Source: a virus
DNA length: 24,124 nt
Virus genome (UHGV): UHGV-0149432
Direction: 5' to 3' (one strand)
Shown: positions 17,038-24,074 of the stretch, one piece after another
How the letters are laid out: the number at the start of each line of letters is the position of its first letter
How positions within the stretch are numbered: the first letter of the stretch is position 1
Position numbers and translations under genes: made by a program
Notes under the pieces: generated by a model
Seen by the model: the letters and a program-made list of their open reading frames with translations, nothing else
The model's database searches: none
What the model was told of the DNA's origin: nothing

Positions 17038-17481
17038 ATGGCTAAAGACGGAAAACACGTAATTCACGCGGGCGGCATTTTCGCTAACCCGCAACTTCAT
17101 CGCGAAGGTGCTGCTGCGGCAGCCACTCAGCCAGGTACTGTCGGTATTTTTGTTGATGGTAAGTTCACTGCTTCAACCGATGGCTCAGAAGCAGCAATTC
17201 ACTACGTTGCCAACTATGACTACCTGCGCTGCAAAACAGTAGACGATACAATCGCCGCTGGTGACTGGGTAGTTGCATTTCACCCCACTCCTGGTGTGTT
17301 CCTCAATTTGCGAGCAGCGGCGGGAACGTACTCAAAAGGCGATCCGGTTGCCGTGGACAATGGTCGGATCAAACTGGCAACGACTACAGGCGAAACGCCT
17401 GACACTGTGTTCGCATATGTAGAAGAAGACAAAGCGCTGACCGCTGCTGCTGGCGATCTGGTTCGCGTCGTATTCAAGTAA
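17038..17481 (+). CDS. putative head decoration / accessory capsid protein
   Basis: 147-aa Ala/Gly/Thr/Val-rich ORF immediately upstream of the major capsid gene; GGAG SD. Confidence 0.5.
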   Translation: MAKDGKHVIHAGGIFANPQLHREGAAAAATQPGTVGIFVDGKFTASTDGSEAAIHYVANYDYLRCKTVDDTIAAGDWVVAFHPTPGVFLNLRAAAGTYSKGDPVAVDNGRIKLATTTGETPDTVFAYVEEDKALTAAAGDLVRVVFK

Positions 17482-17492
17482 GGAGAGACTGA

Positions 17493-18503
17493 ATGTTTGC
17501 ATTTTCTATGAAAAAGGCGAAGGAGACCCGAAACTTTGAGGCCAACCAGGCTCAGTTTCAGGAGTTGCAATTCGCACGCAATGCTAGCGCTCAGGCTGTG
17601 GCAGATTTCATCTCCCGCGCGCAATTTCGTGGTGAGGCATCCAACGCCCCTGTACTGGATGTTGTTAATGCAGTAGACGATATCCGCCGACTGTATAAAG
17701 CGTATGACCAGACAGTACTGGCCGAGTTTGAGCCGACCACAGAGTTTACGCTACTGAATGATCTGATGCCGCTGTCCCGTTCCGTTCGTCTGGAAGAATC
17801 AGTGTACGAGTATGCCCGCAAAGGCGGACGAGGCTGGGCTCACACTTCTATGTCAGGTCAGATTGGTGCCGCTCTGGACGCGAAAAGCTACACCTTTGAC
17901 GGAACGATGGTGTCGATCCATGACAGCGGCTTTAAGTTCAACTGGCGTGATCCGGTATTCAACAAAGGTTCCGCTCTGGCATCACTGTCTGACGCTCAGG
18001 CAGGCTCTGTTGATGATGTTCGCCGTCAGTATGTGGACTATATCTGGAATGGTTTTCGCGACAGCGAAGGCAATTTCATCAAATTTGATGACTATACCTG
18101 GAAAGGGCTGCAGGCGGACGAGCGCGTTGCTCAGGTAACACTGACAGTAAACTTCGCGACCAGCACTGATCCAGACGCTATGCGTGCTGCCGCGATTGCG
18201 CTGCGCGATGTACTGAAGCTTCAAAACTATCAGTATGGCCAGCAGACCTGGCATGTGTCGGCAGAAATCATGTCCAACCTCGAGCAGTACTACGACACTC
18301 AGAATAAAACCCGCACCGTGCTGGAAGAGATTCTGAAGTTATCTGGTATTTCCGCAGTAAAAGAAGATGCTCAGTTGACCGGCAACCAGATCCTGATTGT
18401 TCCGCTGGGTGCTGGAGTTATTGCCCCCATTATTGGTCAGGCGTTCGGCACAGTAGCCGACCCGCGCCTCTTCTATAACAGCGATTATGTCTGGCGTACC
18501 TAG
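17493..18503 (+). CDS. putative major capsid protein
   Basis: 336-aa ORF with AAGGAG SD 7 nt upstream; size and position (after scaffold and decoration genes, before connector genes); ends on TAG. Confidence 0.65.
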   Translation: MFAFSMKKAKETRNFEANQAQFQELQFARNASAQAVADFISRAQFRGEASNAPVLDVVNAVDDIRRLYKAYDQTVLAEFEPTTEFTLLNDLMPLSRSVRLEESVYEYARKGGRGWAHTSMSGQIGAALDAKSYTFDGTMVSIHDSGFKFNWRDPVFNKGSALASLSDAQAGSVDDVRRQYVDYIWNGFRDSEGNFIKFDDYTWKGLQADERVAQVTLTVNFATSTDPDAMRAAAIALRDVLKLQNYQYGQQTWHVSAEIMSNLEQYYDTQNKTRTVLEEILKLSGISAVKEDAQLTGNQILIVPLGAGVIAPIIGQAFGTVADPRLFYNSDYVWRT

Positions 18504-18583
18504 GGTGCAGCTGGCCTGATGGTTAAGCAGGACATCAACGGTCACTTCTCTGTCGTTTTCGCTTCGAGCTAAGGGGGGGCGGC

Positions 18584-18790
18584 ATGGCACTGGTAAAAGT
18601 GGTCTCATCTAACCTCTTTTCCGGTGCCAATCTCCAGAAGTTGGAGGTTGGCATGACGTTAGAGGTTAGCGATGATGTTGCGGAACGCTGGGAATCTACT
18701 GGTCTGGTTGAGGTGATCGATGGCGGAGAGCGTCATATTGAGGTTGCCGCTCCAGCAGAGCCGAAAACCAAAGCGAAGAAGGGTAAATAA
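18584..18790 (+). CDS. hypothetical small head-module protein (68 aa)
   Basis: ATG with G-rich SD; within the structural operon. Confidence 0.45.
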   Translation: MALVKVVSSNLFSGANLQKLEVGMTLEVSDDVAERWESTGLVEVIDGGERHIEVAAPAEPKTKAKKGK

Positions 18791-18792
18791 CC

Positions 18793-19173
18793 ATGGCTGA
18801 CCCAATCACAGCGGCAGACGTGCAGGCGTTCCCCGGTGAATTGGGTTACTCCATTCCGGGCTCGCTGCTGGAGCCGATCCTCTGCGTAGTGAACAAGATT
18901 ATCCCATGCCTCGATGGCGCGGGGTATGACGAGTGCACCGCGAAGCTGATCCTGATGTACGCCGCCGCATTGATGGCTACGTCGTCCGGCGCGCGTCGCA
19001 TCAAATCGCAGGGCGCTCCGTCTGGCGCGTCCCGCTCGTTTGAATATGGCGACGACAGCATCAACTGGCTGCGCGACTCACTGGCGAAACTCGATACCAG
19101 CGGCTGCACCGGCGACCTGCCAATCAGCGCCGGGAGCAGCGTCGGCCTGTTCATGGTGGTCGGAGGCTGCTGA
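18793..19173 (+). CDS. putative head-tail connector (gp6-like adaptor)
   Basis: 126-aa ORF in the usual connector position after the capsid gene. Confidence 0.5.
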   Translation: MADPITAADVQAFPGELGYSIPGSLLEPILCVVNKIIPCLDGAGYDECTAKLILMYAAALMATSSGARRIKSQGAPSGASRSFEYGDDSINWLRDSLAKLDTSGCTGDLPISAGSSVGLFMVVGGC

Positions 19174-19346
19174 TGACGTACAAATCAGTTAAGCACGGGC
19201 TGCCGCGCTCTTTCACCCGCGTCTGGGTGATGACCGACACCGGGCGGGAGACGACTGGCCACGTGAAATCGGATGGCGAGTGGTTCATCAACTGCCCGCG
19301 CATCCGGGCGACCGGCGCGAAGGTGCTGCGCTGGAAGGAGGGCTGA
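19173..19346 (+). CDS. hypothetical small structural-module protein (57 aa)
   Basis: ATG overlapping upstream stop (TGATG); stop overlaps the next start (TGATG); translationally coupled. Confidence 0.35.
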   Translation: MTYKSVKHGLPRSFTRVWVMTDTGRETTGHVKSDGEWFINCPRIRATGAKVLRWKEG

Positions 19347-19687
19347 TGTCGAGCATTGCTTCGTGGAGCTATACCGCCACGGCGACCATCTGGCGCAAAC
19401 TGGAAGGCAATGACGAATACGGCGACCCGCTAGGCTATGCCGAACCTGAGCAAATCATCTGTGATTACGAGGGCGGACTCAGCAAGAAGCTAGCCAGCCT
19501 GGGCGCTGAAATCGTCGTGAAGAATACCGTCTGGACGGAGTTTGCGCTGGCGGCCGCTGGTGATTACCTGCTGATTGGGGTTTCGACTGAAGCAGACCCG
19601 GTTGTGGCCGGTGCCGACGAGGTGCGCCAGGTTATATCCGCTACGCCGACACGTTCGAACGCCTGGCGGATGATTACGCCATCCTGA
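19346..19687 (+). CDS. putative head-tail joining / head closure protein
   Basis: 113-aa ORF with AAGGAGG SD; position between connector and tail-completion genes. Confidence 0.45.
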   Translation: MSSIASWSYTATATIWRKLEGNDEYGDPLGYAEPEQIICDYEGGLSKKLASLGAEIVVKNTVWTEFALAAAGDYLLIGVSTEADPVVAGADEVRQVISATPTRSNAWRMITPS

Positions 19688-19733
19688 CGGGAGTATGATA
19701 GAGTCTTCTAAACCCACGCGTTGAGAGGAATTT

Positions 19734-19907
19734 ATGTCTGAAGTCAGCGGTTACAACACTGGTAATTTCACTCCAGAGTCAGCGGGAGTTGTTGCGGATA
19801 AGCTTAATGAAATTGCAGAGCTAATTCGTAATGATCCGTCTCTTCTCATTCAGTTGGAATGGAAAGAGTCAGAGGATTCAAAAGAAATCAGCATCATGTA
19901 TAAGTAG
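19734..19907 (+). CDS. hypothetical small acidic protein (57 aa), accessory insertion
   Basis: ATG with GAGAGG SD 5 nt upstream; AT-rich; followed by an intrinsic terminator; below the track size cutoff. Confidence 0.45.
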   Translation: MSEVSGYNTGNFTPESAGVVADKLNEIAELIRNDPSLLIQLEWKESEDSKEISIMYK

Positions 19908-19925
19908 CACAACGCATTCAGATAA

Positions 19926-19949
19926 GGTCGCTAAGGCGGCCTTTTTTAT
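19926..19949 (+). terminator. Rho-independent terminator
   Basis: GGTCGC-taag-GCGGCC stem followed by TTTTTT; near-identical to the 15784 element. Confidence 0.6.
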
Positions 19950-19963
19950 TGCCTGGAGAAAAA

Positions 19964-20332
19964 ATGGGCATCAAAGTGAAGGGCGTCAACTAGGCGAAGA
20001 GGCACCTGAACACTATTGTTGGTGATATACAGGGGAGAAAAGTCGTTCGTGCTATGCAATCTGCTTTGATTATAGGCGGAACGCAGGCGGCTCTGTATAC
20101 ACCAATTGATACTTCAACCCTCATAAACAGCCAATTCAGAGAGATTACGGTGAACGGAAATCGTGTTACTGGGCGCGTTGGATACACTGCTAACTACGCC
20201 GTTTATGTCCATGATCCGAATGTACCGCAGAACTTCCGCCGGGCAACGGCCAAGAAAGAATTTCTTACTAAAGGTTTCGAAGAAACCCGGCGACAGATAG
20301 ACGCTGCAATCGCCAAGGAAATGTCGTTATGA
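19964..20332 (+). pseudogene. HK97 gp10-like tail-completion protein with in-frame amber at codon 10
   Basis: ATG at 19964 gives MGIKVKGVN then TAG (19991-19993), then the same frame continues AKRHLNTIVGDIQGRKVVRA into the track ORF 20054-20332 (ALYTPIDTSTL...VGYTANYAVYVH); typical family N-terminus is split by the stop. Confidence 0.6.
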
Positions 20333-20555
20333 CTCCTCCAATGTACGAACGAGTACGTAATCGTCGCCCAGCAGCAGAAAAGGCATAGGAAATCATCAAT
20401 TATGTCGAACAGAACGACATTGCCGATGAGTGCCTTGGCCTGATTCAAAACCTCGGGAATATGCCAGCACCACTCCTGACTGAAGAGGGACGATTGGTCT
20501 TCCGACTTCAGTTCATGTGCGTTTACGGCGAATAGCCCCCATCACCAACCCATCA

Positions 20556-20580
20556 GGCTGCCATCCGGCGGCCTTTTTTA
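20556..20580 (+). terminator. Rho-independent terminator
   Basis: GGCTGCC-atcc-GGCGGCC stem (one G.U) followed by TTTTTT. Confidence 0.55.
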
Positions 20581-20594
20581 TTTGAGAGGTACAC

Positions 20595-21404
20595 ATGCAA
20601 GGCTGTGCTAATGATTTTGGCAAGCTGATCGGGAAAGTAACTGTGCTACGCATGGCCTTTGGCTGCCCCGACGCAGTGCCAGCGCTTTCCGAGTGGAAGC
20701 GTCTCGGCGCTATGACGACCAAGGGCATCGACTATTCGATGAACACCATCAACTCCGAAGCAGATGATGCTAAAGGGCTGGTGGAGAACCTGGTCAACAA
20801 CATGGATCTGACGATCTCCGGTGAAGGTGAGTTTCGCAAGTCGGATAAAGATAACGAGATCGGCGCGTGGCGTCTGTCGAAGTACATCTTTGATGAAGTG
20901 CAGGCAGGTCGGCAGCCTAACCTTTGGGTACGCTTCGACTTCGCTGGTGAGAACGCTGGCACCTACATTCAGGGCTACATGAATACCACGTCATGGTCTG
21001 GAGACTTCGGGACCAACGACATTTCCACTTTCTCTGGTGAGTGGAAAGTTTACGACGCTGACACCGTGGTGTTCGAAGTGGCTGATTCAATCGCTGTTAC
21101 TGGTGTTGAAGTTACTCCAGCTACATTTGATAACAAAATTGCAAATGGATATTATGATGGAACAACTCGCTGGGCTTGGTCTAATACATATACAGTACAG
21201 TTAACTACAGCTAGTATTACATGTTTTGGAACAGCTAACTCTGTTAACTTTGTAAAGCCTCCGCGCCTGCCAAGTTTTACTACCGCAGGAAGGCCCGCCC
21301 TTGGTCTTGTTGACGCAGGTGCGCAGATATTAGATACAACTTTAGGTTACGCTATAACATGGACCGGATCAGTATGGAAAAATGGTACTGGGACGATAGT
21401 GTAA
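20595..21404 (+). CDS. putative major tail (tube) protein with AT-rich C-terminal extension
   Basis: 269-aa ORF with GAGAGG SD 5 nt upstream; position after the gp10-like gene; C-terminal third is compositionally distinct. Confidence 0.5.
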   Translation: MQGCANDFGKLIGKVTVLRMAFGCPDAVPALSEWKRLGAMTTKGIDYSMNTINSEADDAKGLVENLVNNMDLTISGEGEFRKSDKDNEIGAWRLSKYIFDEVQAGRQPNLWVRFDFAGENAGTYIQGYMNTTSWSGDFGTNDISTFSGEWKVYDADTVVFEVADSIAVTGVEVTPATFDNKIANGYYDGTTRWAWSNTYTVQLTTASITCFGTANSVNFVKPPRLPSFTTAGRPALGLVDAGAQILDTTLGYAITWTGSVWKNGTGTIV

Positions 21405-21432
21405 AAACAGGCCGCGTTCGCGGCCTGTTTTT
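21403..21432. terminator. bidirectional Rho-independent terminator
   Basis: AAAAA-CAGGCCGC-gttc-GCGGCCTG-TTTTT between the convergent major tail gene and gtrC. Confidence 0.65.
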
Positions 21433-23131
21433 ATTCAGATAATAATTTTAATGTCTTAGCATTATTGTATAGTTCATTCCATTGAGGGTACATATTAACT
21501 ATGTTTTTTATAAAATCTTGGGACTCAGACTCAGTAAATGGCCTCTGCTTTTCATAGATATATGCAGAAACCCCTTTACTTAGTTGATATTTTTCATCAA
21601 GTTTTTTATATGCCGAACCTATACCTTTTCTATTTAACAATAAGGTCGCAGGGTAAGAGATGACCCTTTGTCCGTCCTTGTTTAAATGCAACTGTATGGG
21701 GTTAGTAACCACAACATATTTTGTGGAGAAAGCTTCCATCCTGAGTTTATCGCGCAAATCTACTTGAGATACACGGAATACACGAGGGGTAAGCTTGAAA
21801 TTAGATATTGTAAGTAACATATCATCATTTAAGATGTAGTTAGAGCTAAATACAGATATTTTATCGCCACTATTCGTAAGGGCTACAAGTCTATCACTCA
21901 GCCTTTTGTACTCGTCGAAATTGGAAACTTTATATGGGTATAATCCATCAGGAAATATATGGAAGCCATTTTTATAAGAAGGGAATGGTTTGTTAAAAGT
22001 GCTAACAGATATAAGCGTCATGCCTACCATAATTATGGTAAGTAAAGAATGTTCGGCATCCTTGCTCTTGAATAATGATGATATGTAATTTAGCCCAAAA
22101 ATAGAAACAAACAAGAACCACAGAGAGAATGGTAGAACATGATGAATGCCGGGTGTCTGAGTACCAGTAAATAATAGTACACTGATAACAAACGAGAAAG
22201 CAGAGAAAAGAACAAAAACGCTTTGCTTTGTTTTAATGTTTGAAATGGCACTAATTATGCCAAATATAAAAAATGGCATCATAAACAAACCAATATCTCC
22301 AAAAATCACCATAAGTGATTTTGAGAATCCATATTGGTAAGCTGAATACATGGTTGAGTAATCTGTAGATATTATTCTGGCTATTAACTCTTTCTGAATT
22401 AATAATGCAAGGGCAACAGTGATTATTCCTGAGATGAAAAAGTTAATCAATATGTTTTTTGCTTTGTTTAACTCGAACTTAAACTTAACATCATGATAAT
22501 AAGCCACAAAAAAAGGCAAGGTTATATATAAGGTGATGACCGTAAATATATACCATCTTCTAAATGCAAATGGCATCCATAACAGAATGCCGAGAAAAAC
22601 TGATTTAAATAACAATACTCTGTTTGATAAGTTATTTTTTATCGTAAAATAAATCACACAGAGAATAGGTATCAGTCCGACAACATCAGGCAAACCTCTA
22701 AGAGTTGGTTTCCAGAATGGAGTATATAATACAACAAGAATAGCTGTTGTTATTACATAGAATGCTGACTTGTTTTCAAATATTTTTAATAAAATAAATG
22801 TTGCCAATAAAATTACAGGGATTAAATATGTAATGGTTATAGCGTATATGTAAGCACTTCTTGAGTCGATGGGCAGAAATTTAAATGGAAATAATAATGC
22901 TGTAGACAGAGCGTTATAGTCATCCTTTGTTACTGTTGTATAAACAGACATGCCCCAGTCCAACGGGCTCTGGAACAACAGATCGGCGTATCTCATCCAT
23001 TGCATCCAAAAATTTTTGGAGTCCCAAAAGTACACGCTCTGTTCATTACCCATGAATACATGCACATTTAACAGAGCTAAAACTAACACAATCACAAAGG
23101 ATATAAAATATACTTTATTATTCTTTGTCAT
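21431..23131 (-). CDS. gtrC: GtrC-type serotype-specific O-antigen glucosyltransferase (polytopic membrane protein)
   Basis: 566-aa AT-rich ORF with many hydrophobic segments and a hydrophilic C-terminal domain; start overlaps the gtrB stop by 14 nt; canonical gtrA-gtrB-gtrC order. Confidence 0.65.
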   Translation of the reverse strand: MTKNNKVYFISFVIVLVLALLNVHVFMGNEQSVYFWDSKNFWMQWMRYADLLFQSPLDWGMSVYTTVTKDDYNALSTALLFPFKFLPIDSRSAYIYAITITYLIPVILLATFILLKIFENKSAFYVITTAILVVLYTPFWKPTLRGLPDVVGLIPILCVIYFTIKNNLSNRVLLFKSVFLGILLWMPFAFRRWYIFTVITLYITLPFFVAYYHDVKFKFELNKAKNILINFFISGIITVALALLIQKELIARIISTDYSTMYSAYQYGFSKSLMVIFGDIGLFMMPFFIFGIISAISNIKTKQSVFVLFSAFSFVISVLLFTGTQTPGIHHVLPFSLWFLFVSIFGLNYISSLFKSKDAEHSLLTIIMVGMTLISVSTFNKPFPSYKNGFHIFPDGLYPYKVSNFDEYKRLSDRLVALTNSGDKISVFSSNYILNDDMLLTISNFKLTPRVFRVSQVDLRDKLRMEAFSTKYVVVTNPIQLHLNKDGQRVISYPATLLLNRKGIGSAYKKLDEKYQLSKGVSAYIYEKQRPFTESESQDFIKNIVNMYPQWNELYNNAKTLKLLSE

Positions 23132-24074
23132 TTTCCGTTACCTCAGAAATAAAAAACTTTGGTCTTTTTTTACTTTCAATATATATCTTACCAATATACT
23201 CGCCAATCACACCAAGGCAGAGCATTTGAACTCCACCTATAAATAGTACAGCTAAAATCATCGACGCCCATCCACTAACAGTATGTCCAAGAAAATACTG
23301 GGCAAGAGTATATATAACTCCAATTGATGAAAGTATAGAGATAATAAAACCTAAAGCGGTTACGATCCTCAACGGAGTTACTGAGAACGATGTGATTCCT
23401 TCAAGGGCAAGAGCCAGCATTTTTCTGAGCGGGTACTTTGATTCTCCTGCCGCTCGCTCATGACGAGAATAGTACACTTTATCACTTGGATATCCGATCA
23501 GGGGGATAAGACCCCGAATATATAGGTTTTGTTCTTTATACTGTAAAAGGGAGTTGAGCGCCCTTCGACTTAACAGCCTAAAATCAGCATGATTTTCAAC
23601 CTGATTTACACCAAGCCTGGTCATTACCTTATAGAATGCTTCTGCTGTAAACTTCTTAAAAAAACTATCTGAGGTTCTGTCGTTCCTTACTCCGTATACT
23701 ATGTCGTGACCAGAGAGATAGGAGTCAACCATTTTTTCAATCACAGCGGTGTCATCTTGCAAGTCAGCATCAATACTTACAGTAATGTCAGATGTAGTGC
23801 ATGATGATAACCCTGCCATCAATGCAGTCTGATGGCCTTTATTTCGTGAAAGTTTTACCCCTTTCACCAGACAACTGTCACTTGATGCTTCTTCTATTAA
23901 TCGCCAGGTATTATCTTTGCTTCCATCATCAACAAAGACTATATGACTTTCTCTATCTATTTTCCCTTTGTCTTTCATTTCACTCATACGAGATGATAAC
24001 TCATTAAGACAAAGGCTAAAAACATCTTGCTCATTATAGCAAGGCACAACAATGGAAAGAACAGGCGCTTTCAT
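23118..24074 (-). CDS. gtrB: bactoprenol glucosyltransferase GtrB (GT2 family)
   Basis: 318-aa product; N-terminus MKAPVLSIVVPCYNEQDV, DDGSKD and DADLQDD motifs, two C-terminal transmembrane segments; strong resemblance to GtrB/ArnC-like GT2 enzymes. Confidence 0.9.
   Translation of the reverse strand: MKAPVLSIVVPCYNEQDVFSLCLNELSSRMSEMKDKGKIDRESHIVFVDDGSKDNTWRLIEEASSDSCLVKGVKLSRNKGHQTALMAGLSSCTTSDITVSIDADLQDDTAVIEKMVDSYLSGHDIVYGVRNDRTSDSFFKKFTAEAFYKVMTRLGVNQVENHADFRLLSRRALNSLLQYKEQNLYIRGLIPLIGYPSDKVYYSRHERAAGESKYPLRKMLALALEGITSFSVTPLRIVTALGFIISILSSIGVIYTLAQYFLGHTVSGWASMILAVLFIGGVQMLCLGVIGEYIGKIYIESKKRPKFFISEVTENDKE

Follow-up and report, generated by a model that had tools for sequence, protein, structure and literature searches.

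What is a 57-codon open reading frame (ORF) doing between two morphogenesis genes of a lambdoid prophage? We examined this question in a stretch of 24,124 nt (the window), a defective prophage in a Citrobacter chromosome adjoining purB-hflD-mnmA-nudJ-rluE-icd. An earlier note on this DNA had described the ORF as a small acidic accessory gene with a good Shine-Dalgarno sequence, lying in an AT-rich block between head-completion and tail-completion genes, followed by a repeated terminator and interrupting an otherwise conserved structural gene order. The features on which the analysis turns, here designating the ORF cargo A, are as follows.

19346-19698, + strand: upstream neck-region gene, ancestrally 116 aa, phrog_797 (no assigned function); a pseudogene here
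19694-19704, + strand: -10-like motifs at the upstream stop codons, from sequence inspection and taken as a lead only
19699-19963, + strand: the whole inserted cassette, about 265 nt relative to relatives with an empty slot
19723-19728, + strand: Shine-Dalgarno sequence GAGAGG of the cargo A gene, 5 nt before the ATG
19734-19907, + strand: the 57-aa cargo gene A
19924-19949, + strand: predicted intrinsic-terminator hairpin, AAGGTCGC-TAAG-GCGGCCTT, with its T-run
19950-19963, + strand: conserved right junction, TGCCTGGAGAAAAA, in which GGAG (19955-19958) is the ribosome site of the tail-completion gene
19964-20332, + strand: downstream tail-completion gene, phrog_5 ('tail completion or Neck1'); a pseudogene here

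Sequence, variation and relatives of cargo A

The translation of the ORF is identical to the 57-aa peptide quoted in the earlier note, and the ribosome site is as good as had been stated. The block is also AT-rich: GC content is 40.8% in the cargo A ORF (0.41 at third codon positions, GC3), compared with 58.6% (GC3 0.67) in the upstream gene and 55% across the head-to-neck block at 17038-19687. The product is acidic, as proposed, with a pI of 4.29 and a net charge of about -6.5, and hydrophilic (GRAVY -0.44); no hydrophobic segment or hydrophobic helix was found, either from the hydropathy of the sequence or in an AlphaFold model. Using a shallow alignment, AlphaFold2 reached a mean pLDDT of 74, and the model predicts a disordered N terminus, a short strand, a helix (residues 14-33) and a beta-hairpin (39-45/50-56). 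Cargo A would encode a small acidic cytosolic protein without a catalytic or DNA-binding signature.

Among 5.8 billion proteins searched, the clusters to which cargo A belongs hold 8 protein variants, each exactly 57 aa long and 81-100% identical, from prophages of Citrobacter, Lelliottia nimipressuralis and Enterobacter hormaechei. At the DNA level, 9 distinct versions were obtained from 21 loci; they diverge by up to 13%, keep a constant length of 57 codons and all retain the ribosome site. Codon position 3 accounts for 20 of the 33 variable sites, and pairwise dN/dS (Nei-Gojobori, 35 pairs with dS > 0.05) has a median of 0.21 and a range of 0.00-0.53. Judged by this variation, cargo A is a genuine gene under purifying selection. 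The window copy from Citrobacter differs at residue 55, which is Met (ATG, 19898-19900) here and Thr (ACG) in all 7 other variants; this T55M change is compatible with relaxed constraint.

Searches for a known family, fold or function returned nothing convincing. Comparison with Pfam, PHROGs and NCBIfam gave no family match, structural families included, PADLOC models gave 0 families at E up to 1, and PDB sequences, a set that includes solved anti-CRISPRs, gave nothing below E 0.5. Foldseek likewise found no significant match for the model in PDB or BFVD. When 1.84 billion representatives were searched exhaustively with a HMMER profile, the single 50%-identity cluster of cargo A was recovered; the other matches were spurious, being long proteins matched in several short stretches. 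Because the family consists of one such cluster, profile methods have nothing to reach. There was no match by tblastn in 50,697 GenBank phage records or in PLSDB plasmids, by megablast in complete E. coli genomes, or in a scan of GTDB species-representative genomes, and a literature search returned no paper describing the cargo A gene or the neck/tail slot. Two other readings were dropped along the way: Rfam assigned no RNA family within 19300-20700, which disposes of a known sRNA, and no partner gene adjoins cargo A as a toxin-antitoxin or acr-aca pair would have it.

An insertion slot with six cargos and one 3' module

In the Klebsiella phages KY271396 and MK448231, the genes that flank cargo A are 2 nt apart, stop to ATG. 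Exactly between the flanking stop and ATG, about 264 extra bases are present both in the window and in an E. hormaechei prophage, so that the conserved gene order is indeed interrupted; across these and other prophages, the insert measures 264-270 nt. A slot survey was based on the 80 closest IMG/VR contigs of 496 relatives, in which the upstream protein is 93-100% identical; 79 of the 80 hold both flanking genes. The slot is empty in 51 of these 79 contigs (65%), with the flanking genes 5-8 nt apart, and in 28 it is occupied by one or two of six small cargo genes.

Cargo A: 57 aa, soluble and acidic; 2 contigs of 79
Cargo B: 61 aa, soluble; 2 contigs of 79
Cargo C: 62 aa, one hydrophobic segment; 7 contigs of 79
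Cargo D: 82 aa, soluble; 3 contigs of 79
Cargo E: 74 aa, acidic; 1 contig of 79
Cargo F: 95 aa, two hydrophobic segments; 10 contigs of 79
C+F tandem: 2 contigs of 79
C+E tandem: 1 contig of 79

A C+A tandem is also present, in loci L013 and L101. Pairwise comparison of cargos A-F revealed no mutual sequence similarity, and all are named 'hypothetical protein' in their sources. For cargos B-F, no family in Pfam, PHROGs, NCBIfam or PADLOC rose above threshold. Below threshold, cargo F matched DUF2542 at 19-23.5 bits (cut-off 25) and cargo B matched SduA at E 0.01 over 25 residues, the sole PADLOC match among the cargos.

Cargo A was always found in the neck/tail slot, and in prophages that are apparently complete from the portal to the tape measure and beyond; an example of an intact carrier is E. 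hormaechei GCA_027886545.1 (CP115696.1, prophage at around 1.187-1.203 Mb). The tail-completion alleles adjoining it are 100%, 73% and 48% identical to the E. hormaechei reference (L003), and it is accompanied by different scaffold and major-tail types. This variety of tail-completion, scaffold and major-tail partners speaks against dependence on any single assembly partner. In each locus, cargo A is followed directly by the tail-completion gene, with no HTH gene. The earlier note would have been refuted by homologous phages with a conserved structural gene at this place. Related prophages with the same gene there do exist, but they are a small minority (2 of the 79), and the gene matches no structural family, so that this refutation does not apply in spirit; reading cargo A as a structural gene was rejected, given a slot that is usually empty and otherwise holds unrelated genes. 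As read from these comparisons, the neck/tail slot is a hotspot that takes several cargos, all with a common 3' module, and cargo A is an accessory gene. The accessory status proposed earlier thus stands, on the strength of the empty slot in most relatives, the presence of five further small genes, unrelated to it, in most occupied slots, the foreign GC content and the terminator.

Leader, ORF and terminator make up the inserted cassette, together with a new ribosome site that serves the downstream gene. Where the slot is empty, the tail-completion gene has its ribosome site within the 3' end of the upstream gene. The predicted terminator is an 8-bp GC-rich hairpin (19924-19943) followed by TTTTATT, and begins 17 nt past the cargo A stop. 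It is repeated, as had been claimed: the window contains three copies of the 15-mer GGCGGCCTTTTTTAT, at 15793, 19935 and 20567, against a chance expectation of 0.07 and with 0 of 100 shuffles reaching three copies, and near-identical copies of the hairpin lie at 15782-15801 and 20555-20574. All six cargos end in the same 3' module, in which the GC hairpin is followed by TTTTTTATTGCCTGGAGAAA and then by the tail-completion ATG. Across 15 versions, 91.7% of the hairpin stem cells are paired, compared with 25-61% in slid controls, and two stem pairs are swapped from G-C to C-G in cargo-F versions, although these swaps may represent a single event. The pairing of the stem and the compensatory swaps therefore show that the hairpin is maintained as a structure.

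The other two copies of the hairpin lie elsewhere in the window. The one at 20555-20574, AGGCTGCC-ATCC-GGCGGCCT with a T-run (about 4210-4230 in L001), stands directly before the major tail protein gene, is conserved in Klebsiella phage KY271396 and may act in termination or in stabilising the mRNA. The module at 15782-15801 closes a second variable accessory region of the window (14937-15801), located between a Mu_F-like minor head gene and the scaffold gene. This region contains low-GC ORFs of 189 aa (phrog_4350, function not assigned) and 60 aa (no family); in relatives it holds a 171-aa gene (L003) or an opposite-strand Rap1a-family gene (L015, L098).

Tandem arrays (C+A, C+E and C+F) were found in loci L013 (7734-8231), L036, L049, L059 and L101. 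Their first unit has no terminator, and their second is preceded by a remnant, about 27 nt long, from the 3' end of the upstream gene, such as TTACGCCATCCTGAAGGGCGTATGATAG in L013, repeated with different codon usage. This repeat at the tandem junction records how the units came to be stacked. Recombination probably swaps cargos, acting at the conserved end of the upstream gene on one side and at the terminator/ribosome-site module on the other, and occasional illegitimate recombination would stack two units. In the leader of cargo E, about 98 nt separate the upstream stop from the ribosome site (L072, 2849-2950; L036). It contains a long inverted repeat, GTTGTGGC...CCCGG-AAACGTCA-CCGGG...GCCACAAC, a candidate regulatory RNA structure or operator.

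Decay of the carrier prophage and transcription of the slot

The earlier note's view of the neighbouring genes needs correction. Its tail-completion label holds for the downstream gene, which matches phrog_5 and is annotated as HK97 gp10-like in a Klebsiella phage; 'head-completion' for the upstream gene follows from position alone, phrog_797 having no assigned function. Nor are the two genes intact, as had been assumed. Near 19633-19636, a 2-nt insertion (TA/AT) shifts the frame of the upstream gene, so that its ORF now stops at 19685-19687 and the ancestral C terminus, RYADTFERLADDYAILTGV with its TGA stop (19696-19698), lies in another frame. At codon 10 of the tail-completion gene, an in-frame amber TAG (19991-19993) stands in place of the CAG or GAG of relatives, and an ORF finder therefore lists just a truncated 92-aa ORF from 20054. 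Two further genes are damaged.

7082-7765: Q antiterminator gene, split by an in-frame stop at 7385-7387
20329-20535: tail-terminator gene, 69 codons with a stop at 20386-20388; PF23842 and 127-129 aa in relatives

The two adjacent Q ORFs match positions 1-100 and 102-218 of Pfam Phage_antiter_Q, and the tail-terminator gene has lost about 60 codons to an internal deletion. Past the major tail gene, the distal tail genes are replaced by low-GC (29-42%) genes of glycosyltransferase type on the opposite strand (21431-24074, - strand). These lesions indicate that the carrier prophage in the window is dead, and cargo A is here probably an unexpressed or weakly expressed passenger as a result. Its intact survival in a decayed prophage is no evidence of selection there, because 174 nt can escape lesions by chance.

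The replacing block resembles a gtr-type module for O-antigen modification, placed at the end of the prophage. Its 318-aa ORF corresponds in position and size to the Glycos_transf_2 gene of L009-L012, beyond which a GtrA-like gene lies in L010-L012; its 566-aa ORF has no convincing Pfam match. A second decayed remnant, independent of the Citrobacter one, was seen in E. hormaechei GCA_018596605.1 (L006, 5590-12232). It keeps the capsid-to-neck genes and cargo A, followed by a truncated tail-completion gene that is fused next to a tailspike fragment and gtrABC-like genes.

A simple consensus scan of the + strand found no -35/-10 promoter upstream of the cargo in the window or in L003, L019 and L072, loci chosen to represent cargos A, E and F. 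Inspection of the left junction revealed TATGAT at 19694-19699 and an extended -10-like TGaTAGAGT at 19696-19704, neither of them with an acceptable -35. Similar -10-like motifs occur at the left junction in most A and E cassettes, and TATGAT reads TGTGAT in L015. The leaders of cargos B, C and D are 16-21 nt long, which leaves no room for a promoter inside the cassette. For cargo A, 35 nt separate the upstream stop from the ATG, and the gene is on the late strand. Lambdoid features lie upstream, namely the Q antiterminator gene (PF06323), a PR'-like promoter at 7749-7777 and, beyond Q, a strong terminator with a 12-bp stem at 7830-7857.

In lambda, Q-modified polymerase reads through intrinsic terminators. 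On the basis of the late strand, the 35-nt gap and the lack of a recognisable promoter, we infer that cargo A would be transcribed at least with the Q-dependent, antiterminated late operon and, as Q-modified polymerase ignores intrinsic terminators, would be made with the late proteins. The hairpin would act solely on RNA polymerase unmodified by Q and could keep local or read-in lysogen transcription out of the tail genes, while a weak -10-like element at the left junction may give some expression in the lysogen. Late-only expression would leave the conserved terminator without an obvious role; it might stabilise the 3' end of the mRNA. The multi-cargo slot with its common 3' module, the lack of a recognisable promoter and the defective state of the carrier all go beyond what the earlier note had described.

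Competing explanations and known systems

Taken together, we think that cargo A is probably a moron-type accessory cassette in a hypervariable slot between the phrog_797 gene and the tail-completion gene of lambdoid siphophages of Enterobacteriaceae, co-transcribed late, exchanged at its flanks and encoding a protein that binds a partner. Stoichiometric binding is suggested by the size and charge of the protein, its lack of membrane or catalytic features and its slot-mates, which include membrane proteins; most likely, it binds and blocks another protein in phage-host or phage-phage conflict. We also propose, tentatively and as less likely than not, that the slot serves specifically for the exchange of conflict genes of very small size, with the terminator/ribosome-site module as the recombination handle. 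Cargo A would then represent a new family of acidic inhibitors, made late or loaded into the virion, that neutralise a specific defence or competitor; host immunity, competing phages and tail-stealing satellites would be candidate targets.

A different account, which we judge somewhat unlikely, makes cargo A a classical lysogen-expressed moron that has its own weak promoter at the left junction, is closed by the terminator and protects the lysogen against other phages or alters host physiology. It would explain why a conserved terminator lies directly downstream, since in a Q-antiterminated operon this matters for non-Q transcripts alone. In most A and E cassettes, the upstream stop is spanned by TATGAT and TGaTAGAGT, and in tandem arrays the -10-like motifs travel with the unit and the ~27 nt of the upstream gene. 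Slot-mates C and F are membrane proteins, like the exclusion protein HK97 gp15 (PMC3594210), and defence by small morons of late operons has been described (PMC10884400). However, the consensus scan found no -35/-10 promoter in the window or in three related loci, TATGAT is changed to TGTGAT in L015, the leaders of cargos B, C and D are just 16-21 nt and cargo A has no PADLOC match. Tab, the moron with a mapped promoter, is on the opposite strand, unlike cargo A (PMC10884400).

The late strand and a position exactly between the neck and tail-completion genes would equally suit a dispensable virion or assembly accessory that is made late and aids head-tail joining or decorates the neck in carrier phages, as would the translational autonomy of a gene with a good ribosome site and no promoter by scan. 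We nevertheless find such a role quite unlikely for a cargo whose slot is empty in 65% of phages with an upstream gene at least 93% identical, which is interchangeable with unrelated proteins, membrane proteins included, and whose tail-completion partners are down to 48% identical while major tail and scaffold types vary; its foreign GC content and the lack of a structural PHROG or Pfam match point the same way. That cargo A has no function at all, as a chance ORF in a terminator-carrying spacer or as a decaying remnant, appears very improbable. The ORF is short, its homologues are confined to one narrow cluster, the window prophage is full of lesions and the window copy has its unique T55M; yet ORF length is invariant across 9 DNA versions that differ by up to 13%, the dN/dS (median 0.21, 0.00-0.53) and third-position bias indicate constraint, the ribosome site is conserved, the predicted fold is of moderate confidence and cargo A is present in apparently complete prophages.

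Taken alone, cargo A is another uncharacterised accessory gene of a phage, and its carrier is a dead prophage. The comparison with relatives defines a precisely bounded slot in a common prophage lineage of Enterobacter, Klebsiella and Citrobacter, where six orphan families of small proteins (57-95 aa) come and go, all with the same terminator module. Comparable slots have been a productive source of anti-defence and exclusion proteins. The clean contrasts between empty and occupied slots among near-identical phages lend themselves to straightforward functional tests by isogenic cargo swaps.

Several known systems resemble the slot in part. In Mu-like phages of Pseudomonas, anti-CRISPR loci lie in the structural region as small, often acidic orphans in a variable slot, are exchanged among otherwise near-identical phages and have their own promoter and an adjacent aca repressor gene. 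Cargo A differs from these loci in that it adjoins the tail-completion gene, with no promoter or HTH gene found. Tab and anti-Tab (gp30) of Pseudomonas phage JBD26 are likewise small orphan proteins encoded among late morphogenesis genes and present in just some members of a group of closely related phages (PMC10884400). Tab, of 83 aa, illustrates what such a protein can do, as it blocks an assembly or replication step of invading phages (PMC10884400). The gp30 gene shares the late strand and is presumably co-transcribed with the late genes, as we propose for cargo A; Tab is encoded on the opposite strand from its own promoter between the terminase genes, whereas cargo A sits at the neck/tail junction without a partner gene (PMC10884400).

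The hotspots of P2 and P4 share with the slot a fixed site between conserved phage genes at which, from one close relative to the next, unrelated cargos replace one another (PMC9122126). They differ in carrying recognisable, multi-gene defence systems of kilobase size, whereas the slot holds single genes of 57-95 codons with no convincing PADLOC match among them.

Among characterised systems, late-operon morons such as HK97 gp15 and the Tab/anti-Tab pair of JBD26 come closest to cargo A. Morons are defined by Juhala and Hendrix as extra DNA of deviant composition with its own promoter and terminator that is expressed from a repressed prophage (PMC3594210). Cargo A shares with them its presence or absence among relatives, foreign composition and its own predicted terminator; as to a promoter, the left junction offers -10-like motifs without a -35, and the consensus scan gave no match. 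Like the lambdoid morons of HK97 and HK022, among them HK97 gene 15 between tail genes, it occupies a fixed point of the late operon in some of a set of close relatives, and it is a single small non-structural gene of differing base composition with a terminator directly downstream (PMC3594210). It differs from them in having no recognisable promoter of its own and, from HK97 gp15 in particular, in its product, which is soluble, acidic and without a transmembrane segment where gp15 is an inner-membrane protein. What further sets the cargo A slot apart from the lambdoid morons is that six alternative cargos share one 3' module.
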